Source: an uncultured Mollicutes bacterium
GTDB taxonomy: Bacteria > Bacillota_I > Bacilli_A > RFN20 > CAG-826
NCBI GenBank assembly: GCA_900540365.1
Contig: UQFN01000001.1
Coordinates: forward strand, 15,944-79,943
Direction of reading: 5' to 3'
DNA length: 64,000 nt
Part shown: positions 7,453 to 56,247 of the stretch, piece after piece
How the letters are laid out: each line of letters starts with the position of its first letter
Numbering within the stretch: the stretch's first letter is position 1
Translations under genes and position numbers: made by a program
Notes under the pieces: generated by a model
Seen by the model: only the letters and a program-made list of their open reading frames with translations
What the model was told of the DNA's origin: nothing
The model's database searches: none

Positions 7453-8478
7453 TTACTTCAATTTGAAGTTTTTAACGTCATATTTTGATTCTTTTACACT
7501 GAAAATTTCGTCTTTTGAATAATAAATTTTGCTACTTTCTACATCAACTTCTTCGATACCTAACATGTAATCATGGAATGTTTGTTTCTTCTTACTAAAG
7601 GCCATTAAAGAGAAAGAAACAAAAAGTGGAACACCAAAAGTAACTAAGCTAAGCAAAATTTCTAAGAAGAAAAAAATAACAAATCTTAAAGTAAATAATG
7701 GTACGCTTACTGATAAAACGTTTTTATTAACAAGCCCAATTTTGAACAAAAACCTTCCCAAAGTTGCTTTATTTCTTAAAAAACATAAAGGTATTATATA
7801 ATATATAACAACACATCCTAAAAATAAGCTTAAAGGGATTTCTAAAAATAGTAATAAGTCTGAAAAGTATTTTTCGATAGTATAAACATTTGGAACATAT
7901 GTAACAAAATACCCAAGTGCTTGTTCATCAAAATATTTTCCATAAGCATTTTCCACGTATAATTTAGAAGGGATTTTAGCATCAATATTTTTAACTATTT
8001 TCCCGCTTTCTTCATCAATGATAAAATATGGATTATTTTCATAAACTAAAGATGAATCTAATAAAAAGTTATTATATTGTTCGATTACTGCATTATAAGT
8101 TTCTTCACCACTTACTTCAAATAAATACTCATGAAAAGTATCAAGAGCTTGTTCTAGACGAAGTTCTTTTGCTCCATAAGAAAGATTTGATGAAATATTT
8201 AAATAAGTCATTAAATCTTGATAACGCCCAGCTTCATCATTATATAAATATAGTCCAGATTGTATTTTTTTATCATTTAATTCATCATTGTATGCTTTAA
8301 ATTTTGGAGTATTAACAACAATTTCACGGATACAAATAAAAATGCCTAAAGCAACAAGAGCAAAAATTAAAGCATCAAAAACAATACACGAAACTCTCTT
8401 CCAAAAAGTTGGACGATAATATGCAATTTCTTTCTTTTCCTTTTCTACTTCAACTTGAGTAACATTTTCAGAAGTCAT
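7453..8478 (-). CDS. hypothetical membrane protein
   Basis: 341-aa ORF with an N-terminal TM and several C-terminal TM helices. It overlaps the upstream ORF by 11 nt, so it is operonic. Confidence 0.5.
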   Translation of the reverse strand: MTSENVTQVEVEKEKKEIAYYRPTFWKRVSCIVFDALIFALVALGIFICIREIVVNTPKFKAYNDELNDKKIQSGLYLYNDEAGRYQDLMTYLNISSNLSYGAKELRLEQALDTFHEYLFEVSGEETYNAVIEQYNNFLLDSSLVYENNPYFIIDEESGKIVKNIDAKIPSKLYVENAYGKYFDEQALGYFVTYVPNVYTIEKYFSDLLLFLEIPLSLFLGCVVIYYIIPLCFLRNKATLGRFLFKIGLVNKNVLSVSVPLFTLRFVIFFFLEILLSLVTFGVPLFVSFSLMAFSKKKQTFHDYMLGIEEVDVESSKIYYSKDEIFSVKESKYDVKNFKLK

Positions 8479-9592
8479 AACCTTTTTCCTTGTAATAATT
8501 ATCTATTGTTTCTGTATCACAACAAAGTGAATTTGTAGCAAGTTCTTTTAAAGATTGACCATATTTTGAAAAACACATAATAAATAGTTCAATAATTGCA
8601 AATACTAAACTAACAAATGAAACAGGATAAAGTAAATTTAATAAAAACAAATCACTAAAACCAAATGAAATAATTGGAATTAGAAACAAAATTAATAATC
8701 CATTTAATGAATTAAATAAGCCTTCAACGACGACAAATCGTTTTTTTAAATAATTAAGTGAAGGATTATCAACATGTTCAACTTTTAAAATCATTTCAGA
8801 ACAAGTGCGCCCTTTTTTATTTAATAAAGGTACTAAAAAATATAAAATAGCTATTCCAATTCCAAAGCTTATATAGGCTCCAATTGTGGCTACATTTCGA
8901 TAATACGTATCAAATTCAGCTATTTTATTAGAAAGTTCGTTATAAGATAAAGTAATTTGTGAATTAGTTGGATATAAATCGTTTTTTATAATATCTTTCA
9001 TGACATTGCTATATAAGCTTAAAAAACAATTTTCTTTAAAAAGTTCAAGTTCAGTCAAACCATCACTACTTAATTCATCACCTTCAACAAAATAAGGAGA
9101 AAGTAAATCAATGTATTCTTTTTTAAAGGCATAAGTACCTATTGAAGTATAAGAATTTAAATCAAAATACTTTCCTCCAAAATTTTTATATAAATCGTTT
9201 ATATATGTTACATCTTCTCCTCTTAAATCAACAAAATAATGAAAAATAACTTCGTTTTGCAGGGTTTTATCATCAAAAACATAGAATTTTAAAAATTGTG
9301 TAGCAGTATAGTCGAGATTATTTTGAAATTCATATTTACTTTCTTTTTCATAAAAAAGTAACTTATTATCATAAAGGATTTCATTTCTACTTCTAGAATA
9401 TGTATCAGCTTGACTAACTGTATTTGTATAGTTTGCTGCAAGTTTAACTAATGGATTTACAACAATTTCAAAAAGAAAAACACAACTTATAAAAAGAATT
9501 AATAAATCACTAAAAAATACTAAGATTCGTCTTGAATTTTTTGTAGGATAAATATCAATAACTTTTTTTTGAACTTCTTCCATTTGTTCCAT
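8468..9592 (-). CDS. hypothetical membrane protein
   Basis: 374-aa ORF with hydrophobic N- and C-terminal segments. It is first in a co-directional run ending in the ABC importer. Confidence 0.5.
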   Translation of the reverse strand: MEQMEEVQKKVIDIYPTKNSRRILVFFSDLLILFISCVFLFEIVVNPLVKLAANYTNTVSQADTYSRSRNEILYDNKLLFYEKESKYEFQNNLDYTATQFLKFYVFDDKTLQNEVIFHYFVDLRGEDVTYINDLYKNFGGKYFDLNSYTSIGTYAFKKEYIDLLSPYFVEGDELSSDGLTELELFKENCFLSLYSNVMKDIIKNDLYPTNSQITLSYNELSNKIAEFDTYYRNVATIGAYISFGIGIAILYFLVPLLNKKGRTCSEMILKVEHVDNPSLNYLKKRFVVVEGLFNSLNGLLILFLIPIISFGFSDLFLLNLLYPVSFVSLVFAIIELFIMCFSKYGQSLKELATNSLCCDTETIDNYYKEKGYDF

Positions 9593-9625: not shown

Positions 9626-10132
9626 CTATTTATTTTTGACTAAAAAATCAGCAATATCATTATCTAAATAGAGGTAATTTGATAATTTATTATCATTAAT
9701 AAAATATAAAGATGGTGTCCCATATATATAACATTCTTGAGTTGTTGTTGCTCCAATCATTTCTTTTACATATTTGTTAGCATCACTATAACCATAAATG
9801 CTCCCTTTAAAATATGTTAAATCGCTAGGGGAAAGATCAGTTGCTTGTTGCCATTCATATAAATATAATTTGTATTCAAGTCTATTAATTTTATAACTAT
9901 CTAAATAATCTAATAAAGCTCCTTTAATATCTATACAACTTCCACATGCTCTACGAAAAATATATACGCAATATTTGTCTTCTTCTTTATTAAACATTTC
10001 ATCTTGAATTTCCTTTATATAAAATTCTTGATAATCTTCGTATTTTCTATTTAAATGGTCAGTATAATCAGCGCTTGCACAAGCTGTAAGTAAAAAACCA
10101 CAAACAAACAATAATACTGCTAATTTCTTCAT
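9626..10132 (-). CDS. thioredoxin-fold lipoprotein (thiol-disulfide oxidoreductase-like)
   Basis: Signal peptide with lipobox (LLTAC). A CxxC motif lies in a thioredoxin-like context (YCVYIFRRACGSCIDIK) and there is a cis-Pro-like TPSLYF. The RBS AAGGAGG lies 7 nt upstream, directly after the P-type ATPase stop. Confidence 0.6.
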   Translation of the reverse strand: MKKLAVLLFVCGFLLTACASADYTDHLNRKYEDYQEFYIKEIQDEMFNKEEDKYCVYIFRRACGSCIDIKGALLDYLDSYKINRLEYKLYLYEWQQATDLSPSDLTYFKGSIYGYSDANKYVKEMIGATTTQECYIYGTPSLYFINDNKLSNYLYLDNDIADFLVKNK

Positions 10133-10166: not shown

Positions 10167-12920
10167 TTATACTTTTTGCAATTTTTTTCTAATAAATTTA
10201 ACTAAAACAAATATTTCATGGAAAATTAATGGTACAACTGCGAGACCACAAGCAATTCCCCATTCAAATCCATCAAAATTATGTGTATTAAATACACTAT
10301 TAAAGAAAGGAACTTCTACAACTAAAAGTTGAAGAGCAATTCCAACAATAAAAGCAAGTAGCATCATCCAGTTTTTATTTTTAAAAACGAAAATAAATGA
10401 TCTATTAAAATTAGATACTCCTAACATATGGAAAAGTTGTGAAACAGCTAAAACAGTGAAAGCAACAGTTTGACAATGATGTAATAATGTATCACCATTT
10501 GGAAGACTTGTCATATGGACTAAGTTCTCATAAGTAAAAGCAATATTATTTAAATCAAAGATATGATATGCTGTTAATAAAAATCCTGCTATTGTAATTA
10601 AAGAAATAATTATTCCATATCCAAAAGTTAAGAAATACCCACCATGAGCAAAAATTGATTCATTAGGATCACGAGGTTTTTCTTTCATATTATGTGGATC
10701 TTTAGGATCCATACCAAGAGAAATTGCTGGTAAACTATCAGTAATTAAATTAACCCATAATAAATGAATAGCAATTAATGGGGCAGGTAAACCAATACAA
10801 ATCATAATAAACATTGAAAATACTTCGCCCATATTACAAGAAAGTAAGAAAAGAACAGTCTTTTTAATATTGGCATAAATTCCTCTACCCTCTTCAACTG
10901 CTTTCTCAATAGAAGCAAAATTATCATCAGTTAAAACCATATCAGCTGCACCTTTAGCAACATCAGTTCCAGTAATTCCCATTGCAATTCCAATATCAGC
11001 TGCTTTTAAACTTGGAGCATCATTAACTCCATCACCAGTCATCGCACAAATATTACCGTTTGCTTTAAAAGCTTTAACAATACTAACTTTATTTTCTGGC
11101 GAAACTCTAGCAAAAACACGAACTGTTTTACAAAGTTCTTGCAATTCATTTTCGGATAAATTATCAATATCTTTACCCATTACACATTGGGAAATATCAT
11201 CAGCAATGCCAAGTTCTTTAGCAATTGCAAAAGCTGTATCTTTATGATCACCAGTAATCATTACAGTAGTAATTCCAGCTTGTTTAAATTGTTCAACAGC
11301 ACCTTTTGCTTCTGGTCTAGCAGGGTCAATCATTGCAACTAACCCAACAAATACTAACTCTTCTTCTTTTAATTCATTAGTTTCTTTATAAGTTAATGCT
11401 AAAACACGTAAGGCTTTACTACTAAAATAACTATTTGCTTTATAAATTTCTTCAATATCTTTATCATTAATTAATCTAATTTCATCATTAACTTTAATAT
11501 ATTTTGTAAAAGATAAAACGGAATCTAGAGCGCCTTTAGTGAACTGAATTGTCTTATTATCTTTGTTTTTATGAAGTGTAGACATCATTTTTCTTACACT
11601 ATCAAATGGAAGTTCATTAATTCTAGGTAATGAATTTTCTAAATCCTTTTTATGCATTTCAAACTGATTAGCAAAAACAACTAATGCAATTTCAGTTGGA
11701 TCTCCATAAAGTCCTTCATCAACAGTAGCATTACTACATAAAGACATACCTTTTGCTAACAATTCAAGTTCATTATTATCTTTATTAAAAGTATTAGCAT
11801 CGAAATATTTACCTGGTAAATAAGCTTCCATTACTGTCATCTTGTTTTGAGTTAAAGTACCAGTTTTATCACTACAAACAACACTTACAGCACCTAAAGT
11901 TTCAACACTATGTAATTTTCTAACAATTGTATTAGCTTTAACCATACGTTGAACTCCGATTGCTAATACGATAGTAACAACAGCAGGTAATCCTTCTGGA
12001 ATAGCAGCTACAGCAAGAGCAATACTAGATAAAATTGATTCCATCCAACCATCAACTTCACCAATTTTTCCACCAACTGCAAGCCAAATTATGTCAGCAA
12101 CTAAAACTACAACAATAATAATAATTGTTAAAAATCCTAAGATTTTTGATAATTGAGCTAACTTTTTTTGCAAAGGAGTCTCAGTTTCTTCTTCTTCATC
12201 TAAGGCGGTAGCAATTTTACCGATTTCAGTATTCATACCAGTTGAAGTAACAATACCTTTACCTCTTCCATAAGTAACAGGAGTTGACATGTAAGCCATA
12301 TTTACTTTATCACCTAAAGCAACTGGCTCACTAAAGACAATATTTTTATCTTTTTCAATTGGTAATGATTCACCAGTTAAACTTGATTCGTTTGTTTTTA
12401 AATTGATTGTTTCTATTAATCTTAAATCAGCACCAATAGTGTCGCCTTCTTCTAAAATTACAAGATCTCCAGGAACTAAAAATTCACTTTTTATTTTTAT
12501 ACGCTTTCCATCACGAATTACAGTTGATTCTGGTGAAGACATCTTTTTTAATGCATCAAGAGAATTTTGTGCCTTTTTTTCTTGAATAGTTCCAATAACT
12601 GCATTAAGAATAATAACTACTAAAATTATAATTATGTCGGCCCAGTCAGCTTCTTTATCTTGAACTGTATTTACAATTGAAATTAATAAAGTTACTAAAA
12701 CTGCAGCAAAAAGAACATAAATCATTGGGTCCATCAATTGTTCTAAGAAAATACGAATAATACTTTTCTTCTTCTTTTCTTCTAATTTGTTTGGACCATA
12801 TTTTTCTAAACGTTTTTGTGCCTCTAAAGACGTTAAACCTTTTTCTTCATTGGTTTCTAGTTTTAAAATTGTCTCTTTTGCAGACAAAGTTTCAAAATTA
12901 TTGTTGTTTTCATTTGCCAT
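10167..12920 (-). CDS. P-type cation-transporting ATPase (type IIA Ca2+/Mn2+-ATPase-like)
   Basis: 917 aa. Phosphorylation motif CSDKTGTLTQN, nucleotide-binding TGD and hinge GDGVNDAPSLKAADIGIAMG, and 10 TM helices. The RBS AAAAAGGAG precedes the ATG at 12920. Confidence 0.9.
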   Translation of the reverse strand: MANENNNNFETLSAKETILKLETNEEKGLTSLEAQKRLEKYGPNKLEEKKKKSIIRIFLEQLMDPMIYVLFAAVLVTLLISIVNTVQDKEADWADIIIILVVIILNAVIGTIQEKKAQNSLDALKKMSSPESTVIRDGKRIKIKSEFLVPGDLVILEEGDTIGADLRLIETINLKTNESSLTGESLPIEKDKNIVFSEPVALGDKVNMAYMSTPVTYGRGKGIVTSTGMNTEIGKIATALDEEEETETPLQKKLAQLSKILGFLTIIIIVVVLVADIIWLAVGGKIGEVDGWMESILSSIALAVAAIPEGLPAVVTIVLAIGVQRMVKANTIVRKLHSVETLGAVSVVCSDKTGTLTQNKMTVMEAYLPGKYFDANTFNKDNNELELLAKGMSLCSNATVDEGLYGDPTEIALVVFANQFEMHKKDLENSLPRINELPFDSVRKMMSTLHKNKDNKTIQFTKGALDSVLSFTKYIKVNDEIRLINDKDIEEIYKANSYFSSKALRVLALTYKETNELKEEELVFVGLVAMIDPARPEAKGAVEQFKQAGITTVMITGDHKDTAFAIAKELGIADDISQCVMGKDIDNLSENELQELCKTVRVFARVSPENKVSIVKAFKANGNICAMTGDGVNDAPSLKAADIGIAMGITGTDVAKGAADMVLTDDNFASIEKAVEEGRGIYANIKKTVLFLLSCNMGEVFSMFIMICIGLPAPLIAIHLLWVNLITDSLPAISLGMDPKDPHNMKEKPRDPNESIFAHGGYFLTFGYGIIISLITIAGFLLTAYHIFDLNNIAFTYENLVHMTSLPNGDTLLHHCQTVAFTVLAVSQLFHMLGVSNFNRSFIFVFKNKNWMMLLAFIVGIALQLLVVEVPFFNSVFNTHNFDGFEWGIACGLAVVPLIFHEIFVLVKFIRKKLQKV

Positions 12921-12929
12921 AAATTTCTC

Positions 12930-13018
12930 CTTTTTATGGTCTTGCTAGAGAAAATTCCGCATAAAGCCTGGTTTTAACCGAGATGTAGACATTTATGCTA
13001 AGCTACTCCCCATATAAG
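12930..13018 (-). promoter_or_regulatory. yybP-ykoY (Mn2+) riboswitch in the 5' leader of the P-type ATPase gene
   Basis: Minus-strand RNA reads UAUGGGGAGUAGCUUAGCAUAAAUGUCUACAUCUCGGUUAAAACCAGGCUUUAUGCGGAAUUUUCUCUAGCAAGACCAUAAAAAGGAG. It has the conserved 5' GGGGAGUAG and 3' UAGCAAGACC blocks of yybP-ykoY. A closing helix UAUGG/CCAUA and an internal helix GCAUAAA/UUUAUGC are present. This is the only GC-rich patch in an AT-rich spacer, and it abuts the RBS. Confidence 0.75.
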
Positions 13019-13074
13019 TAAATATTTTATATAAAATATTTCTTAAATCAATATTAATTTAGGTAATATTGAAG

Positions 13075-13575
13075 ATGTATTTTATTTTTGATAATCTATT
13101 AGAAATGCATATTAGTAAAGCTCAATTTGTATATTTTATGACATGTAATTTTCCTGTCACGTTTTTTATATGCTTAACTTACTCATTATGGGCTTCTTTT
13201 GATATTGATTGGCTTAATTTTTTATATAATTTTTTAATAGGTTATACAATTAGTAATTTTGTTAGTGCATTTGTCCCACTAGTTAAAATTGGAAAATGGT
13301 TTACAAAAAAGTTTAATGTTCCAAATGAAACTTATAGCGGAAATATTAAATATCGTTTATTAGCAGTTTTTATTATAACAATGATTTTCTTTATTTTTGT
13401 AAACCCTGTATTAACTACTTTTAATTATTTTTATTATCAGAAAACTGATCCTCTAGGAGCTTTTCTAGATTGGTTAATTTCATTACCATTAGTATTAGTT
13501 GTTAGTTATTTAGTTAGCTTAGTTTCAGATTTTTTTGCTTATCGACTTGCTAAAAAAATTGATAAAAATTTTTAA
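13075..13575 (+). CDS. hypothetical polytopic membrane protein
   Basis: ORF with about 5 hydrophobic helices. The track start (13069) is a TTG, and an ATG at 13075 (MYFIFDN...) is more likely. This is the only plus-strand gene in the first 19 kb. Confidence 0.5.
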   Translation: MYFIFDNLLEMHISKAQFVYFMTCNFPVTFFICLTYSLWASFDIDWLNFLYNFLIGYTISNFVSAFVPLVKIGKWFTKKFNVPNETYSGNIKYRLLAVFIITMIFFIFVNPVLTTFNYFYYQKTDPLGAFLDWLISLPLVLVVSYLVSLVSDFFAYRLAKKIDKNF

Positions 13576-13608
13576 AAATGTCTTAGTTTTAAAGGGTTTT
13601 TATAAATT

Positions 13609-16600
13609 CTAAGGCTTTTTTAATTTAATTTTATTCTCATAAATTTCAAAAGTTTCATTATATTTACGCACAACAAAATTAATTAATTTTTCTAACTTAT
13701 TAGAAACATTATTATTTATAACTTTTAAATTAAATAAATTAGCTAACATTTTGATTACTTCATTTAATTCTAAATCGTTTTGATATTTTAAAATATCTTT
13801 TAAAGCGTTTCTAATTTCAACACTTGAAACAAAAGAAATATCTCTTTGATCGCTTGTACTACTACGATATATTTGATATAAATTTTCATCAAAATTTAAT
13901 GGATAATAAAATGAATCAAAACATTCATTTTTAATTTGATAATTATTTAAAACTGGCATTAAATGTTTTTCAAATATTCTTTCAAATCTTGTTCCAGTTC
14001 GAGAAATATCAAATAATTCTTTAAATCTAGCATATAAAACTTGTTTGGAAATTGGTGCTTCATAATCAATATATTCACTAAGAAGCATACTGAGTCTATT
14101 ATATGTTACATCCTCAATTACAGATTCATATTTATATTTGACATTTGGTACAAACTTCATATATTCAATTTTATTTTGATAAGGAGTAATAACTTCCTTT
14201 TCAAAATTTAAATTAACTGGATTAGTTTTATTTATCGATAAATCAAAAGGAGTTTTAATCGCTCTTAAGATATCAGCAATAACTTCATCCTTATTTTTAT
14301 AGTAATCTAAAGTATAAATACGTAAAATTTTCCAATTTAAACGATCTAAAATATGTGGTTGAACATAATTTCTATCACGACAAGTTAAAGTATTTAAATA
14401 ATTTTTACTATCAAGAATAATACCTAATAAATATTCATTATTAATTCCTTTTATGGCGATATTAATTTTAAATTTGCTATCACCAATATTTAAATCAAGG
14501 TCATAACCAAGTTTAATTAAATCGTTAGCAATGCTTTTTTCTACTCCTTCTTCATAGTTAACAGTTTCATCATATTCACTAATTAAATAATTACCACCAA
14601 GTTCAGCATATTTTAAGAAATCTTTTAAAACTTTAGCGCCATTATTTTTTACTTTATCAACATCGATATCGTTTCCTTTAATTGAGGAATAAATAATCAT
14701 TTCTTTTCTACTTCTAGTTATTGCAACATTAAGTCTTCTTTCTCCTTTTTCTAAAGATAGTGGACCAAAGAAATTATTTAAACGATTATATTTATTTTTG
14801 CTATAACCAATAGAAAATAAAATAACATCTCTTTCGTCTCCTTGAACATTTTCAAGATTTTTAACAAATATTTTGTCTTTATTTTCTTCGTTTTTCTTAT
14901 AAAAAGAAGGATACTGAGCAAATAAATCTTCAATTAAGTCTTCAATTAACTCTTGTTGTTTAATATTAAATGTAATTATACCTATGCTTAATTTAGATAA
15001 GTTTTCATCTGAAAATCTTCTTTTAACTTCTTTAACTATTTCAAAAGCTTCTACTCTATTTACACCATTATCATTAACCCCTAAAGGTAAATATTTAAAA
15101 AATATTTTATTCTCATTATTTGGGCTAGGGAAAGTTAATAAAGAATGATTATAAAAATAGTTATTAGAAAATTTAATTAAAGATTCACTTTCACTACGAT
15201 AATGCCACAATAAACGATTTCGTTTCATATTTAAGGTTAAAGCATCGTCTAGTAAACTTTCTAAATCTTCACATGTATCATCATTTAAAAATTCATCTTG
15301 ATAATTATCGACATTTGTTTTAAAGAAATTTGATGGAGGCATTTGTTCTGGATCACCTGCAATTATTAAACTATTTCCTCTACTAATTGCTCCAAGAGCT
15401 TCGCATGTTTTTATTTGACTAGCTTCATCAAAAATAACAATATCAAATTTCTTATTATCAATACTTAAATATTGAGCTGCACTAAGAGGTGACATAAAAA
15501 ATATCGGGGTAATATTTCTAATAATATCTTCATAATCTTTTAAAATATTACGAATAGAAGTATTTTTACCTCCATTTTTAATTAATTTTAAAAGTTTATA
15601 TACATTAGTTGATTTAGCATATTCAATACTATCTAAAGGGTAGTTTTTAGTAACTCTACTTGCAGTTTCTTTAATTAAAAGGGCATTATATTCATCTAGA
15701 TATTCGTTATATTTTTTAATTGCTTCATTAAATAAAAGTCCATTAAATTCAATAAAATAAGGATCATTAAAATAAGTAGATATAATTGTTTTATAATAAC
15801 TTAACAAATATCTTTGGTGAAGTGTAAATAAAGAAATATCTCCACGACGATAAAGGGTAATTAATGGTTCATAAAATTTATTTTCAATTAATTTATCTAA
15901 TAAAGAATTAATAAGATTTACATTATATATATCTTTAGAATTTTCTATTTGATTATTAAGTAAAGAAATATAATTTTCTAAATAAGTGTTACTTATATCA
16001 AATCTTAATAATTTTGAATTATACCCATATAAATAAGTTAACTTATTTTCAAGATTAATAATTTGATTATGATAATCATTTATTGAAGTTATTAATCCAG
16101 TGTAATCTTTTTGTTTTAATAAATTATAGAAATTTTTAAATTTATTAAAATGAATTAAATAATTATCATCCTTTATGAAAATTTTATTAAAAAGATTTAT
16201 AAAAAGATAAGAAGAATCTAAAGTATCTTTTAAACTGCTATAGTTATAATTAATATCTTCTTTTAAAACTGGAAATACTTTAATTAGATTGTTATTTATG
16301 CCATTCATCAAAGAAATTAAATTAACAGCTTCTTCAATTTTATTTAATAAATTTACATAATTTTTAAAACTAATTTTTAATTTTTTATTTGAGATTTGCA
16401 GGCTTTTTAATGTTTTTAACTGGTTTTTAAATATTTTATGACGTTTAAAATAACCGTTTGAATGATCTAATAACTCTTTTTTAAATAAGGTTACATCCTC
16501 TTTTAAAATATCAAGACGATAATACTTTAATATATCATTTAATAAAGAATTAAGTTTGATTCCTAAATTAATGACTTTATAGTTGTTGCTAATATTTTCA

Positions 16601-19383
16601 ATGAACTCAGTAGTATAAATATTATTAAAACTAACTTCGTGATCTTTAAAAGTATTTAAAATGTTAATTAAAGTTTCAATGTTATTTTTATTTAAAGTTA
16701 TATCATCGTTAATTAAATTAGATAACTCATAAATGCTATTTTTATATTCATTTATAATTAATTTTAATTCTTGAAGATTATCTTTTAATTCATTTAAATT
16801 AATTTCTTTTTTCTCTAACTTATAAGGATAAAAATATTCATCTTTATATTCTTTTCTTGCTGATTCAATTTCTTTTATTGTTTCGATAATTTCTTCAATA
16901 CTTTCTTTATTTTCTTTAGAAAGTTTTAAAGCATCTTCATATTCATCAGAATTTTTAAATTCAAATTCTTTTAAAGAGAAATATTTTGTTAAAGCATCAT
17001 GTAAGCTTATTCCATGAAGATTTGAATTTAACTTTTCAATTAACTTATTTAAATATTCCTTTTTGTTTAATAATTTTTCTTCAACATCTTTTAATTCTAT
17101 TGGACTTTGTAAACGTCCATAATTCAAAGCTTGCTCAATTTGTTCTAAAACATGTCTTTTTGTTGCTTTGTTGGAATGAATTTCTAAACAAAAATCACCA
17201 AGTTTAATATCATCAATACGTTTTTTAACTACCTCAAGAGCAGCCATTTTTTGTGCGACAAATAAGACGCTTTTATGATGATATAAAGCGTTAACAATCA
17301 TATTAACAATTGTCTGTGATTTTCCAGTTCCAGGAGGACCATCTAAAACAAAACTTACATTATTAATCGAATCTTTAATTGCTTTTATCTGACTACTATC
17401 AGCACCTAAAGGAATTGCTAAATCAGTTAATTTTGTATCATCTAATATTTCATCTTCTTCGTTTTGATAAGGCGTCTCTTTAACTAAGCGCTTAATAAAA
17501 TCGTTTTTAAGTAATTCATCTTTTCTTAAATTTAAATCATTCCATAGTATTTGGTTACTAAAAGTAAAATTAGAAATAAAAGCTTTTTTCTCATCAAGTA
17601 ATAAGGAACAACTTTTTGAAGTTCTACTTCTTATAAAATTAAAAATTGAATTGATGTTTGTTTCGGTAATAATTTTTTTATTTATATCATATATATCATC
17701 AAAGCTAATTCCACTATTTAATTTAATGAACTCAAATACAGTCGTATTAAGAAGTAAATTATCAATATCAACTTCTATTTCAAAAGCATCTAAAGATTTT
17801 CTTAACTTAGATTTTATAGGAATTAATAAAATTGGAGCATTAAAAGATTTAACACTATTTTTTAAAGTGAATGTTAATAAACCTAAAGCTAAATAAAGTG
17901 CATTACTTCCAGTTTCTTCCATAATGCTATTAGCTTTTCTAATTAATTTAATATATGTCTTATCATCAATCGAAATAGGATAAATATTTTTTTCTATTAG
18001 ATATAAATAATCATTTTTAACATTTTCAGTTATAAATTCATTTTTGCTTAGCTTTAAATTAAGAGGAAAAACTTTAATTACATTATTTTCACTAATTTTA
18101 CTAAAAAGATTTTGAATACTATCTATAACAACTTCGGCAATATTATTGCCATAACTAAAATTAATTAATTTATTTTTTAAGCTGAGATCTAAAAGCTTTT
18201 TTCTCCAATAGATGAATTTATTGTTGTCTTTTGCGGTCCTTTCATATATCAATCCATCACCATCGGTTTTCTTGTTAACAAATTCATGATTCAAATTATT
18301 TTTAAAATAAACATCAACTTTATTCTCATTTATTACTTCATAACTAGGTATAGGTTTAACAAAAGAATGATGTAAATTTGATATATTTAAAGCTGTAAAA
18401 TTTTTAACATAATTTTCTAAATGTTTTCTTGCACTTTCATTAGCTTCATTAAAACTAACATTCTTTCCAAGAGTAAACGATGTAGTTTCGACAAGTTCAA
18501 TTTTCATATTGCCTAATGTCGAATAATTATATATTTTTCCAACATCATTAATAACATTTTCAATAAAACGATCTTCACTTAAAAAAGCACCTGCAAAAGC
18601 GTGTCCTTCAATAATAACTAATATCGGTGAAATTCCTAAAACTTCTAATATTGAACAATATAAAATACTTAAATCTAGGCAAGTCCCTAACTTAGTACTT
18701 AAAACAGTATTTGGTAATCTTACTCTTTGAAATTTATTAAATGAACTTGGCGGATTTAAATAAGCAATGTTTTCTTTAACTAGCGCATTATAAACTGCGC
18801 ACATCTCTAAACGAACACTATCTATATCGTTAGCTTGATAGCCAATAAAATTTGGATTAGAACTTCTTAAAAGTTCTAATTCTTTTGTTGCTTTATATAT
18901 TAAATTAGTTATATTTGGATCGTTTGGTGTAACAAAACTAGCTAATAAACTTAAATTTGATGAAATACTATTTGATTCATTAAGGGGAAATAATGAATAA
19001 GGCAAATTAACTTCATTTAAAATATCATTTTCTAAATTTACTAATTTTACATTTAAAATTAACGGGATACATTCACTTAAAAAATATAAATCTTTAACAT
19101 TAAAATTAATTGAAATATTTTCACTAAATTTAACAATACTTTTCGGAGTAATTAAAGAAATATTAATGTCATTTATTTTAATTAATTCAGTATTTGTATC
19201 AAATATTAACTTTAAATCTTTAAAGTATAGATCAGATTTATTTTCAATAATAATTTCCTTAATAAAAGAGTATAAAGTTGTTTTCAAAGTGTTTGATTTT
19301 AATTTGATAAAAGCATCAGCTTGATAATTAAGATAATCGTACTCATTATTAAGATCAATATTTACTAAGATATTTTCATTCAT
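13609..19383 (-). CDS. giant DUF4011-like / Upf1-like (AAA_11/AAA_12) SF1 helicase fused to a DUF559 (Vsr-like) endonuclease domain and a C-terminal DUF3320-like region
   Basis: 1924-aa uninterrupted ORF. Helicase motifs present are motif I (DGPPGTGKSQT), motif II (IFDEASQ), GDPEQMPP, motif V (VQGDERDVILFS) and motif VI (VAITRSRKEM). Downstream is a DUF559-like block (KINIAIKGINNEYLLGIILDSKNY...RDR...WKILRIY). The N-terminal ~650 aa includes LYLALGLLTF, typical of DUF4011. Confidence 0.8.
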   Translation of the reverse strand: MNENILVNIDLNNEYDYLNYQADAFIKLKSNTLKTTLYSFIKEIIIENKSDLYFKDLKLIFDTNTELIKINDINISLITPKSIVKFSENISINFNVKDLYFLSECIPLILNVKLVNLENDILNEVNLPYSLFPLNESNSISSNLSLLASFVTPNDPNITNLIYKATKELELLRSSNPNFIGYQANDIDSVRLEMCAVYNALVKENIAYLNPPSSFNKFQRVRLPNTVLSTKLGTCLDLSILYCSILEVLGISPILVIIEGHAFAGAFLSEDRFIENVINDVGKIYNYSTLGNMKIELVETTSFTLGKNVSFNEANESARKHLENYVKNFTALNISNLHHSFVKPIPSYEVINENKVDVYFKNNLNHEFVNKKTDGDGLIYERTAKDNNKFIYWRKKLLDLSLKNKLINFSYGNNIAEVVIDSIQNLFSKISENNVIKVFPLNLKLSKNEFITENVKNDYLYLIEKNIYPISIDDKTYIKLIRKANSIMEETGSNALYLALGLLTFTLKNSVKSFNAPILLIPIKSKLRKSLDAFEIEVDIDNLLLNTTVFEFIKLNSGISFDDIYDINKKIITETNINSIFNFIRSRTSKSCSLLLDEKKAFISNFTFSNQILWNDLNLRKDELLKNDFIKRLVKETPYQNEEDEILDDTKLTDLAIPLGADSSQIKAIKDSINNVSFVLDGPPGTGKSQTIVNMIVNALYHHKSVLFVAQKMAALEVVKKRIDDIKLGDFCLEIHSNKATKRHVLEQIEQALNYGRLQSPIELKDVEEKLLNKKEYLNKLIEKLNSNLHGISLHDALTKYFSLKEFEFKNSDEYEDALKLSKENKESIEEIIETIKEIESARKEYKDEYFYPYKLEKKEINLNELKDNLQELKLIINEYKNSIYELSNLINDDITLNKNNIETLINILNTFKDHEVSFNNIYTTEFIENISNNYKVINLGIKLNSLLNDILKYYRLDILKEDVTLFKKELLDHSNGYFKRHKIFKNQLKTLKSLQISNKKLKISFKNYVNLLNKIEEAVNLISLMNGINNNLIKVFPVLKEDINYNYSSLKDTLDSSYLFINLFNKIFIKDDNYLIHFNKFKNFYNLLKQKDYTGLITSINDYHNQIINLENKLTYLYGYNSKLLRFDISNTYLENYISLLNNQIENSKDIYNVNLINSLLDKLIENKFYEPLITLYRRGDISLFTLHQRYLLSYYKTIISTYFNDPYFIEFNGLLFNEAIKKYNEYLDEYNALLIKETASRVTKNYPLDSIEYAKSTNVYKLLKLIKNGGKNTSIRNILKDYEDIIRNITPIFFMSPLSAAQYLSIDNKKFDIVIFDEASQIKTCEALGAISRGNSLIIAGDPEQMPPSNFFKTNVDNYQDEFLNDDTCEDLESLLDDALTLNMKRNRLLWHYRSESESLIKFSNNYFYNHSLLTFPSPNNENKIFFKYLPLGVNDNGVNRVEAFEIVKEVKRRFSDENLSKLSIGIITFNIKQQELIEDLIEDLFAQYPSFYKKNEENKDKIFVKNLENVQGDERDVILFSIGYSKNKYNRLNNFFGPLSLEKGERRLNVAITRSRKEMIIYSSIKGNDIDVDKVKNNGAKVLKDFLKYAELGGNYLISEYDETVNYEEGVEKSIANDLIKLGYDLDLNIGDSKFKINIAIKGINNEYLLGIILDSKNYLNTLTCRDRNYVQPHILDRLNWKILRIYTLDYYKNKDEVIADILRAIKTPFDLSINKTNPVNLNFEKEVITPYQNKIEYMKFVPNVKYKYESVIEDVTYNRLSMLLSEYIDYEAPISKQVLYARFKELFDISRTGTRFERIFEKHLMPVLNNYQIKNECFDSFYYPLNFDENLYQIYRSSTSDQRDISFVSSVEIRNALKDILKYQNDLELNEVIKMLANLFNLKVINNNVSNKLEKLINFVVRKYNETFEIYENKIKLKKP

Positions 19384-23798: not shown

Positions 23799-24365
23799 TT
23801 ATAATATTCCTTCCAATAATATTTTAATTGCTAAAACTAAAAAAACTAGTGCAGCAATTAATCCAGCCCGTTTTTGTATTTTGCCAGCAATTTGTTTACT
23901 AATTAAAATCGCTATAAAACTAAGTATAAATGTAGTTACTCCGATTATTACAAATGTAATTAAAGCATCTTGAATATTATACCCTAAAAATACAAAACCA
24001 ATACATAAAGCATCGATTGATGTAGCGACTCCTTGAATTAATATGTTTAAAAAAGTTATTTTTTTATCACAAATTTCTTCTTTAGATTTAAATTCTTTAA
24101 TCCAATCGATAAAAGCTTTGATACTTAAACCTAATAACAAAGAAAAAGCTATCCAAGGAATATAAGGTTCAACATAACTTTTAAAACTATACCCAACAAA
24201 ATAACCTATAACAGGCATTAAAAATTGAAATAATCCAAACATGAAAGAAATTAGGAGCATTTTCCTAATTTTCATATTTTTTTCTTCTAGCCCATTTACT
24301 ACATTTACAGTACAGGCATCAATTGACATACTTAAAGCGGTTAAAATAGCGTCAACAAAATTCAT
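23799..24365 (-). CDS. mntP: putative manganese efflux pump MntP family (UPF0059)
   Basis: 188 aa, 6 TM helices, with the two characteristic halves SMSIDACTV... and ATSIDALCIGFVF. Confidence 0.7.
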   Translation of the reverse strand: MNFVDAILTALSMSIDACTVNVVNGLEEKNMKIRKMLLISFMFGLFQFLMPVIGYFVGYSFKSYVEPYIPWIAFSLLLGLSIKAFIDWIKEFKSKEEICDKKITFLNILIQGVATSIDALCIGFVFLGYNIQDALITFVIIGVTTFILSFIAILISKQIAGKIQKRAGLIAALVFLVLAIKILLEGIL

Positions 24366-24529
24366 AAGTAAGATTTTATAGTTTTTATATTTAAAAATAA
24401 ATATAAAAATTATTTTGATTGCAAATTATTAAAAAAGTTATCGATTTGTTAAATTAGATTGTAATATAAGTTTAATTATTCTTAAAAAATAGTTGAGATT
24501 TAAAGGTTTTTTTATAAAAATTGTAAGTT

Positions 24530-55043: not shown

Positions 55044-56247
55044 AAATAATAGATTTTTTAAATTGTTTTAATTTCTCTATTTTTTCAGTTTTAAGTTTAA
55101 TCAACGAATTAATTACCGCTACTTTTTTATCCAAATAATTAACGATTTCTTTTTGCTCAGCAATTGGAGGGAGAGGAAATTGAAAATTCCCGAATTGTTC
55201 TTGATAGAGGTGTATAATTGTACTTTGTCCCCTTTGATTATAATCAAACCACTCCCAAAAAATATTACTTGAAAGGCAATAAAACAAGTATTTATTAATG
55301 TATTTACCTGACTCGTTTCTAATCAACATAATTCCACTATTAAGAGATGTTTTATAAGGCAAACCTTGAACAATAGCAACTTTGCCAACAGTGCCGTCTT
55401 TTGTTATTAAGAGATCGTTTTCTTTAATCTGAATCTGATAAGCTTCTTTGTATCTTGCCTCAGTAATATGAGTGCATGTGTCCCAATTGATTGTTCCATC
55501 TAAAAAATCAGTCCCAGTTATTAAAAATGGCCCTTCATCCTTGTACTCTTCAGCCTTTAATCCTTGCCATCCAATTCTTCCTTTAAGATAGCAATGATGT
55601 TTTATTTTTGCTAGCTCCCAATCTATAGGTAATTCACCTATAAAATGGTTTTTCGTTTTTTTCTTTTTCGACTTTCTGAGTCCATTTTTGCAAAGCTCAG
55701 AAATGAGGCTGTATCTATAGGCTCTCAATTTTTCGATTTCTTGTTCTTCAAAAGAGAGGGAGTCATTAATTTTGCTAATTGAGTTATTCAGTTCGTTGAC
55801 AATCTTTATTTGTTCCTCGTTGGAACGTGTAGGTATGTAAAAATTCTTTATATCATTTGTCGAAATATTAGGCTGTGCGGATCCCATCGAAGTAAGCCTA
55901 ACAAAATCTAAAAACATATCATCTAATAGGCAATATTTCAAATACTCTGGTCTTACGCAGCGCGGCCTTATAATACCAACTCGCTGGTTAATACAAGCCG
56001 GTTTATCATCGTCAAAAAGTCCGCTTTTTCCAACGGTGGCGCCACTAAGAGCAACAAGAACATCATTTCTTTTAACGGTATATGGTGACAATCTAGGATC
56101 AAATTGAACACCATAGCATTTTTGAATATCTATTTTTTCATCGACGTCTGTAATTCTAATCACAGGAAAAGGATTCGAATAATCAAAACTGATTGGTTTA
56201 AAAGCAAAACCATTTATTAAATCTGCTATGTATTTAATTCTAATCAT
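55003..56247 (-). CDS. hsdS: Type I RM specificity subunit (HsdS), two target-recognition domains
   Basis: Two TRDs separated by a coiled-coil conserved region. Conserved blocks: ALSGATVGKSG, GSAQPNISTNDIKNF, LPPIAEQKEIV. It overlaps hsdM by 8 nt. Confidence 0.85.
   Translation of the reverse strand: MIRIKYIADLINGFAFKPISFDYSNPFPVIRITDVDEKIDIQKCYGVQFDPRLSPYTVKRNDVLVALSGATVGKSGLFDDDKPACINQRVGIIRPRCVRPEYLKYCLLDDMFLDFVRLTSMGSAQPNISTNDIKNFYIPTRSNEEQIKIVNELNNSISKINDSLSFEEQEIEKLRAYRYSLISELCKNGLRKSKKKKTKNHFIGELPIDWELAKIKHHCYLKGRIGWQGLKAEEYKDEGPFLITGTDFLDGTINWDTCTHITEARYKEAYQIQIKENDLLITKDGTVGKVAIVQGLPYKTSLNSGIMLIRNESGKYINKYLFYCLSSNIFWEWFDYNQRGQSTIIHLYQEQFGNFQFPLPPIAEQKEIVNYLDKKVAVINSLIKLKTEKIEKLKQFKKSIIYERIHGKGMDTNA

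Follow-up and report, generated by a model that had tools for sequence, protein, structure and literature searches.

The question raised by this locus is whether a manganese riboswitch precedes a metal pump gene and, if so, how it would act, given that the Rfam model of the riboswitch class does not find it. The locus lies in a 64,000-nucleotide (nt) stretch of DNA from an uncultured Mollicutes bacterium, here called the window, in which an initial annotation had assigned a Mn2+ riboswitch of the yybP-ykoY class (Rfam RF00080) to the leader of a gene for a 917-amino-acid (aa) P-type ATPase. We consider it highly probable that this leader contains a real yybP-ykoY-class Mn2+ aptamer in the 5' untranslated region of a PII-type ATPase gene, and that it acts as a translational ON switch. 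The leader is a 148-nt intergenic stretch between a divergent 168-aa open reading frame (ORF; start 13069, plus strand) and the 917-aa ORF (10167-12920, minus strand); all element coordinates given below are on the minus strand. The two hallmark sequence blocks of the class were found exactly where they had been placed, GGGGAGTAG / GGGGAGUAG at 13011-13003 and TAGCAAGACC / UAGCAAGACC at 12947-12938, and each occurs only once in the window. Jointly, with a gap of 30-60 nt between them, they were observed once in the window and in none of 100 dinucleotide-preserving shuffles. The aptamer is about 80 nt long (12935-13014) and has a guanine-plus-cytosine (G+C) content of 40%, versus 9% for the rest of the leader (13015-13068) and 27% for the window on average, which makes it indeed the sole GC-rich patch of the leader. 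Both proposed helices are present as described: UAUGG (13014-13010) pairs with CCAUA (12939-12935) to close the element, and GCAUAAA (12998-12992) pairs with UUUAUGC (12965-12959) inside it. The 3' strand is also close to the ribosome-binding site (RBS), but the spacing of 3 nt that had been given needs correction: the P1.1 3' strand ends at 12935 beside a run of A residues, and GGAG begins 4 nt further on, at 12930.

Orthologues of the ATPase are numerous in uncultured gut and rumen Bacilli, the nearest of those with a named source being from Candidatus Onthovivens. In a set of 58 species-representative loci, GGGAGUAG is present in most of the leaders for which sufficient upstream sequence is available, and G[CA]NAGAC lies 53-66 nt further on; the arm between these blocks reads N-C-A-N3-4-C ... 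C[CA]GG around a variable hairpin. GGGAGUAG, the A-G-A-C and the C-A of loop L3 are invariant in all 39 aligned elements. A covariance model, R1, was built from an anchor-registered, N-padded alignment of family sequences only (A3), which replaced two MAFFT alignments (A1 and A2). With R1, an element was located just upstream of the ATPase orthologue in 37 of the 51 species-representative loci, including 15 sequences outside the seed; scores were 24-53 bits except for locus L035 (16.7 bits, E = 0.05), where the element was confirmed by sequence reading. Nine of nine closer relatives, which were fetched separately, have the element too (31-51 bits with R1), and the total of related loci with an element at the same position comes to 46.

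This family model also reaches beyond the family. When R1 was run with filters off on the window plus an Escherichia coli locus (69 kb), the best match beyond the window element was the mntP aptamer (L059, 1963-2075; 19.1 bits, E = 0.003), in an alignment that spans P1.1 to P1.1, with the P1.1-L1-P1.2 shell aligned and the interior skipped. The L1 5' strand of the window matches the RF00080 consensus uUGGGGAGUAGCc, and both L1 strands match the E. coli mntP sequence. In L3, for which the RF00080 consensus is CGUCAACAUACUUG, the window has the 7-nt type known from Lactococcus lactis, and the variants UCAACAC, ACAUCAC and ACAACUC occur in the family. Judged from sequence, the R1 match to mntP, the identity of the blocks and the 7-nt L3 type together establish homology of the window element with the yybP-ykoY class. 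The class assignment of the initial annotation is thereby supported by the core features, by covariation upstream of orthologous ATPases (see below) and by the recovery of the E. coli mntP aptamer. A distant blastn comparison of the leader with E. coli genomes gave no match, which is uninformative. The features of the leader and its gene are as follows.

13024..13051 (-), candidate sigma-70-type promoter, TTGATT-16 nt-TAAAAT, from which transcription would begin a few nt before the aptamer.
13010..13014 (-), P1.1 5' strand UAUGG, half of the putative switch helix, pairing with 12935-12939.
13004..13009 (-), L1 5' strand GGAGUA, an invariant block that matches the RF00080 consensus.
13007 (-), A13007 in L1, counterpart of the L1 adenosine that makes a cross-helix A-minor contact in solved structures (role: PMC6754395, PMC12153347).
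13001..13003 (-), P1.2 5' strand GCU, pairing with 12944-12946.
12999..13000 (-), 5' junction strand UA, 2 unpaired nt where P2 would sit.
12987..12998 (-), P3.1 5' strand with outer GCAUAAA, bulged U12991 and inner GUCU, from parse and covariation.
12980..12986 (-), L3, ACAUCUC, 7 nt bulged on one side only, set between P3.1 and P3.2.
12984 (-), A12984 in L3, counterpart of the adenosine that contacts Mn2+ (A41 of L. lactis, A48 of Xanthomonas oryzae and mntP; role: PMC6649816, PMC6754395).
12970..12979 (-), P3.2 hairpin, GGU, loop UAAA and ACC, from anchored pairs.
12959..12969 (-), P3.1 3' strand, AGGC followed by UUUAUGC, pairing with 12987-12998.
12947..12958 (-), 3' junction strand with a putative vestigial P4 (G12958-U12947, G12957-C12948 and A12956-U12949 around a 6-nt loop), a register kept in relatives.
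12944..12946 (-), P1.2 3' strand AGC, pairing with 13001-13003.
12940..12943 (-), L1 3' strand AAGA, which holds the class-invariant AGA, from conservation.
12935..12939 (-), P1.1 3' strand CCAUA, common to aptamer and sequestor, from folding.
12917..12939 (-), predicted start-codon sequestor, CCAUAAA (12939-12933) with UUUAUGG (12923-12917), in which the loop AAGGAGAAA holds the Shine-Dalgarno sequence, from the minimum-free-energy structure.
12927..12930 (-), Shine-Dalgarno sequence GGAG, 6 nt upstream of the ATG.
10167..12920 (-), 917-aa PII-type (Ca2+/Mn2+-type) P-type ATPase, ATG at 12920-12918.

Since the invariant blocks adjoin the helices directly, the pairings can be read without an alignment. 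In the 39 elements, P1.1 position 2 is always paired (GC 24, CG 8, AU 6, GU 1), and positions 3 and 4 are paired in 33 and 31 of them, respectively. P1.2 has a GC as pair 1 in 39 of 39, and its pair 2 is likewise paired throughout (CG 32, UA 6, UG 1). The inner pairs of P3.1 are paired in 30-39 sequences, the innermost being GC in 33, UA in 5 (as in the window, U-A) and AU in 1, while compensatory changes occur in all of its outer pairs. The three anchored pairs of P3.2 are paired in 35-39 of 39, the first two in every sequence, with 3-4 pair types each. For the anchored positions that vary, the observed pairing was reached in 0 of 1000 shuffles. Altogether, compensatory changes were found in 17 of the 21 pairs in A3, and in 18 of 21 in A4, a model-made alignment of 38 R1 matches that takes in non-seed sequences, so that the check for covariation in relatives, which had been proposed along with the riboswitch, came out in favor of the element. 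When the registers of A3 were slid, just 25-39% of cells were paired. RNAalifold recovered only P3.2 from the raw MAFFT alignment A1, because the MAFFT rows are out of register: in A1 and A2, several of them are one column off the structural register near the CCGG/CCAGG anchor. For two hairpins made of A and U only (L016 and L017) the energy-model parse was replaced by a stacking search, and L017 and L024, which were badly parsed, were excluded from the statistics on the outer part of P3.1.

Several features of the class can be recognized in this fold. The L1 internal loop has the conserved 5' strand, a 3' strand bearing the AGA that is invariant in the class (PMC6649816), and P1.1 and P1.2 as flanks. 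At the level of sequence, the P3 arm has an L3 loop with the Mn2+-contact adenosine, and the invariant A13007 and the C-G pair at inner position 2 of P3.1 (37 of 39 elements) are compatible with the cross-helix A-minor contact. The junction is different. P2 is absent: in most elements 4-5 nt separate GGAGUAG from P3.1, and the 4 nt found in the window leave no room for a P2 hairpin. For the same reason a hidden P2 was rejected; an extension of P1.2 by pairing of the two junction strands was rejected too, its pair 3 being paired in just 13 of 39 sequences. The 5' junction segment, P1.2 nucleotides included, reads C-U-U-A in the window, and the family consensus is C-N-A-A, after which P3.1 follows at once. 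At the P4 site, GGAAUUUUCUCU, G-U, G-C and A-U pairs closing a 6-nt loop could form, and the predicted stability of this vestigial P4 alone is 0.0 kcal/mol. Relatives with a 3' junction strand of the same length (13 nt; 8 distinct sequences) keep the P4 register, with AU in five and GC in three at pair 2-11, and GC in five and AU in three at pair 3-10. Upstream of the aptamer, the candidate promoter at 13024..13051 has no rival in the stretch from the divergent ORF to the aptamer; promoter-like sites are no commoner here than in shuffles (5 found, 5.5 expected), and the call is therefore tentative.

How such an aptamer would control the gene is suggested by folding. In the class, metal binding stabilizes a weak P1.1 helix against strand invasion (PMC6754395), and in the window P1.1 likewise has an alternative partner in the expression platform, as expected of a switch helix. 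The aptamer fold, at a predicted -15.0 kcal/mol, is isoenergetic with the fold that combines the P3 arm and the sequestor (-15.1). In the unconstrained minimum-free-energy structure (-22.1) the sequestor is formed, together with a pairing of UGGGGAG (13012-13006) with UUCUCUA (12952-12946). This second helix, between the L1 5' strand (13006-13012) and the 3' junction strand (12946-12952), has 7 base pairs (bp), 3 of them G-U; it may be an anti-aptamer that reinforces the OFF state, and would be possible only where the junction strand is pyrimidine-rich. The paired probability of the AUG is 0.99 in the free ensemble and 0.46 with P1.1 and P1.2 enforced. In the predicted structure the sequestered element is thus the start codon, not the RBS. 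When the 5' half of the aptamer was removed from 40 related leaders, the P1.1 3' strand was predicted to pair with the start codon in 16, with the Shine-Dalgarno sequence in 13 and with both in 1 (30 of 40), and three of the other ten leaders have a terminator that overlaps P1.1. No terminator-like site was found at 12850-13650 of the window. These folding results suggest that the element is most likely a translational ON switch.

A number of points weigh against this reading. The RF00080 match that the class assignment had led one to expect was not found on the leader, neither at the gathering score nor at E<=10 on 12850-13150, and at the gathering score RF00080 matched 0 of 20 orthologous loci, in which only transfer RNAs (tRNAs) were found. 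The whole leader folds no better than its shuffles (z = -1.15), so that thermodynamic stability alone is no evidence for the element. The sequestor is a weak, AU-rich hairpin of 7 bp (-4.6 kcal/mol), and the four-way junction with P2 and P4 hairpins that is known from the class is not found in the window element. The alignment statistics have limits as well. In A3, 94.1% of cells are paired compared with 70.5% in shuffles (reached in 0 of 500), a percentage that is inflated by picking the outer register of P3.1 in each sequence for maximal pairing, which leaves the diversity of pair types unaffected. The 91.5% of A4 (67.1% in shuffles) comes from an alignment that is fitted to model R1. Moreover, the sequences are kin, and shuffle counts are for this reason not probabilities.

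The missing RF00080 match we judge to be a limitation of the model, that is, a false negative, and not evidence against the element. The E. coli mntP leader is a founding member of the yybP-ykoY class. As a positive control, this leader from E. coli K-12 (L059, 1968-2058) also fails the gathering score of the Rfam 15 model, reaching 44.9 bits in E-value mode against a cut-off of 45 bits, and because the control fails too, the miss on the window leader is not counted as contrary evidence. As displayed in Rfam 15, RF00080 runs from the 5' single strand uUGGGGAGUAGCc through a P2 hairpin and a P3 arm that carries CGUCAACAUACUUG to a long P4, and both the P1 pairs and the 3' GCAAGACC strand are missing from it. 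Since this layout needs P2 and a long P4, an RNA without them forfeits most of the attainable score. Among 13 metagenome loci with short elements and both blocks, four gave sub-threshold RF00080 matches (19.8-29.0 bits) and nine gave none. The model thus misses the window element and every relative in the clade that was tested, and it gives compact Mn2+ riboswitches as a group scores that are too low. Annotation of manganese regulation is therefore probably incomplete in AT-rich, uncultured gut Bacilli, which the inclusion of such sequences in the seed alignment would fix.

The gene behind the leader is, as had been proposed, a 917-aa P-type ATPase, and its family matches place it among pumps for Ca2+ and Mn2+. 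The best NCBIfam score was for TIGR01522, the PMR1 type (661 bits, under that model's own cut-off), and TIGR01517, the PMCA type, scored 507.3 bits (cut-off 507.05). The nearest solved structures are Listeria LMCA1 (640 bits, full length), then the Ca2+/Mn2+ pump SPCA1, then SERCA. Genes of Mn2+ homeostasis (MntP, TerC/YkoY/Alx, PII-type ATPases) are the usual partners of the class, and such an association is seen both here, with an LMCA1/SPCA-like ATPase, and in metagenomes, with ATPases and TerC. In Streptococcus pneumoniae, MgtA is under a yybP-ykoY riboswitch, is likened to LMCA1 and SPCAs, and relieves Mn2+ toxicity (PMC6649816). By analogy with MgtA, the ion pumped by the window ATPase would be Mn2+, possibly Ca2+, and the role of exporter given in the initial annotation seems reasonable. 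Downstream of the ATPase lie two ORFs without a Pfam or NCBIfam match, 9626-10132 (-; 168 aa) after a gap of 34 nt and 8468-9592 (-; 374 aa) after one of 33 nt. A pair of ORFs of 165-171 aa and 369-374 aa follows the ATPase in relatives L061-L064 as well; L060 and L065 have the small ORF too, with the second one truncated by the end of the locus. The two ORFs may be operon partners under the same riboswitch.

MntP is the classic target of this riboswitch class elsewhere. The window has its own MntP ORF (23799-24365, minus strand; Pfam PF02659, 117 bits), the leader of which (24366-24529, 164 nt) is almost pure A+T and has no riboswitch. That this gene has no such leader, as was noted at the outset, was borne out by the block and R1 searches, which found the element nowhere else in the window, the region upstream of mntP included. 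R1's best other matches in the window, at 14.9 and 13.3 bits, are located within coding regions or well away from them. The stronger one, at 55184-55264 (-; E = 0.04), has GGGAGUGG and a degenerate 3' block, and is probably a chance match. An Rfam scan of the whole window (1-64000) found no family at the gathering score, and no tRNA, ribosomal RNA or other known RNA. As for the other surroundings of the leader, the divergent 168-aa ORF that adjoins it (13069-13575, plus strand) has no family match, and L065, a relative with 98% identity, has a gene call of 166 aa in the same position; further upstream, a 1924-aa ORF (13609-19383, minus strand) lies on the same strand as the ATPase. GC skew is negative across the window except at 44-46 kb (+0.13).

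From these data the following mechanism can be proposed. In the absence of the metal, the CCAUAAA/UUUAUGG sequestor would form and occlude the start codon. On a rise in cytoplasmic Mn2+, the ion would be bound between L1 and L3, where N7 of A12984 would be one of its ligands, as expected from work on other members (PMC6754395, PMC12153347, PMC6649816). With Mn2+ bound, the helical legs would dock, L1 would become rigid and P1.1 would be stabilized. CCAUA would then be kept in the aptamer and the AUG released, so that the pump would be made and the excess metal exported.

Besides Mn2+, Ca2+ is a possible ligand, and we weighed a reading with the same fold and logic in which the physiological signal is Ca2+, or Ca2+ plus Mn2+. 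We consider this reading unlikely. It could draw on the position of Listeria LMCA1, a Ca2+-ATPase, as the nearest solved relative (640 bits), on the PMCA-type calcium pump being the sole NCBIfam equivalog above its cut-off, on the presence of a separate, riboswitch-less MntP exporter in the genome, and on the S. pneumoniae mgtA RNA, which in vitro bound Ca2+ about 50-fold more tightly than Mn2+ (PMC6649816). Expression of mgtA is nevertheless activated by Mn2+ only: in S. pneumoniae, and with reporters in Bacillus subtilis, Mn2+ alone was active, and Ca2+ stress was not (PMC6649816). In the window, moreover, the core nucleotides of L1 and L3 are those of Mn2+-sensing members, and both the best NCBIfam score (PMR1 type) and the second-closest structure (SPCA1) belong to Ca2+/Mn2+ pumps.

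The two remaining explanations deny the element a function. In one, the leader holds a decaying relic that has lost P2 and most of P4, neither docks nor regulates, and leaves the pump constitutive. Such a relic would explain why the junction helices that organize the legs in all crystallized four-way members are absent, and loss does occur in the clade, where some orthologues have no element (L010, L019, L023, L026 and L032). We regard it as very unlikely all the same, since an invariant core and many compensatory changes across ATPases of 58-98% identity point to purifying selection on the fold, the alternative pairing, in which the 3' strand of P1.1 joins the AUG or the Shine-Dalgarno sequence, co-evolves with P1.1, and natural members without P2 (alx) or without P4 (mgtA) are functional (PMC12153347, PMC6649816). 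In the other, the blocks are a chance resemblance in an AT-rich leader with no RNA function, to which the absent RF00080 match and the unexceptional fold energy would be fitting. With the joint block pattern in 0 of 100 shuffles, covariation across the 46 related loci and an R1 match to E. coli mntP, this has become extremely unlikely, and we take it to be already refuted by conservation and covariation. An Mn2+-responsive translational ON switch remains our preferred reading.

The leaders of the sister genes and of metagenomes show how variable the junction is around this core. At the P4 position, leaders of the clade have an 8-bp P4 (L009), hairpins of 3-5 bp or a CC/GG stem of 2 bp, or lack a hairpin altogether. 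Neither a P2 nor a P4 hairpin is found in L003, L016, L030, L041, L043, L004/L051 and L005 (about 85-150 nt upstream of the ATPase start), which have an AU-rich linker of 10 nt, GAGUUAAUUA or GAGUAAAUUA, for a 3' junction strand. These linkers hold a recurrent GUUAA/GUAAA, reminiscent of the UNAAA that replaces P4 in S. pneumoniae mgtA. The divergent element L009 (1375-1483; 23.9 bits with R1) has an altered L1, GGAGAGUAG, and no P2, together with the full 8-bp P4, CAUAUUAA/UUAAUAUG. In L018 (~140-235), L054 (~95-190) and L035 (1255-1346), there is a P2 hairpin, UUAAA instead of P4, and an intrinsic terminator that overlaps the P1.1 3' strand. With these mgtA-type forms beside the translational ones, a single clade of orthologous genes appears to use both transcriptional and translational versions. 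No element was detectable in the 350-nt leaders of L010, L019, L023, L026, L032, L042 and L045-L048, whose ATPases are 48-67% identical, so that the riboswitch must have been lost, or never gained, in parts of the family.

A metagenome scan for both blocks 44-62 nt apart gave at least 120 loci with at least 87 distinct elements. Among the matches listed, many were parsed as having short P4 hairpins and no P2, 30 of 87 precede ATPase homologues (40-67% identical), and four of four others that were tested precede TerC-family genes. As read from these parses, compact P2-less aptamers are a widespread sub-type that extends beyond one genome. One compact Mn-type element shares its metagenome contig with an unrelated c-di-GMP-I riboswitch (L097, 181-264; 79 bits).

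For the window element itself, it is conceivable, though we remain doubtful, that the 3-bp P4 neither forms nor matters. The result would be a junction-less Mn2+ aptamer, with legs joined by a strand of 2-3 nt and a hinge strand of 10-13 nt. That the junction helices may be dispensable is suggested by the sister leaders that lack both P2 and P4. If this were true, the multi-helix junction that is thought to organize docking in every studied member could be dispensed with, and the ~80 nt of the window aptamer would be near a minimal natural Mn2+ sensor. In either case, the orthologous leaders of this one clade constitute a natural deletion series (8-bp P4, 3-bp remnant, none, and P2-bearing but P4-less) for the role of the junction in docking and Mn2+ selectivity.

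How, then, does the element compare with known riboswitches of the class? In the solved aptamers, two coaxial legs, P1.1-L1-P1.2-P2 and P4-P3.1-L3-P3.2, meet in a four-way junction (PMC12153347, PMC6754395). The four-way members L. lactis yoaB, X. oryzae and mntP of E. coli have the P1.1-L1-P1.2 and P3.1-L3-P3.2 nucleotides in common with the window. Unlike them, the window element has no P2 and almost no P4, and its legs are joined by strands of 2 nt and 12 nt; from P1.1 to P1.1 it spans ~80 nt, compared with ~105 nt in E. coli mntP. Reduced junctions are known. E. coli alx has a capping loop of 3 nt instead of P2, and three-way junctions of the alx type have been predicted in several families (PMC12153347, PMC12934788), while in S. 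pneumoniae mgtA P4 is replaced by UNAAA (PMC6649816). A published form lacking both P2 and P4 was not found in the open-access literature.

Like the window element, alx has no P2, has about 3 unpaired nt near P1.2, and, as is predicted here, exerts translational control via the P1.1 and L1 strands, and metagenome elements with the blocks of the window and a short 5' junction strand precede genes of TerC, the family of Alx. It differs in having a full P4 that contains a termination site, its own pH-linked L3, a long platform and a TerC gene, whereas the window has a P4 of at most 3 bp (with zero predicted stability, although two positions covary), a 7-nt L. lactis-like L3, a single 7-bp hairpin and an ATPase gene. 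The nearest parallel in gene context is S. pneumoniae mgtA, which shares with the window element the L1/L3 core, a PII-type LMCA1/SPCA-like Ca2+/Mn2+ ATPase and a Bacillota host (PMC6649816), as well as a reduced junction (three-way in mgtA) and, by prediction in the window, ON switching via P1.1. The mgtA type, as defined by P2, UNAAA and a terminator, is found in L018, L054 and L035 and not in the window: mgtA retains a P2, with UNAAA for P4 and control by an intrinsic terminator; in the window there is no P2, P4 is a vestige of 3 bp, and the start codon is predicted to be sequestered. The mechanism is unsurprising, and the element is useful for annotation and as part of a junction-reduction series. 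The pairing of this riboswitch with an LMCA1/MgtA-type pump would be extended from streptococci to a distant gut lineage, in a form that is probably translational rather than transcriptional, which supports the view that 'calcium' pumps of this kind can serve as manganese safety valves.

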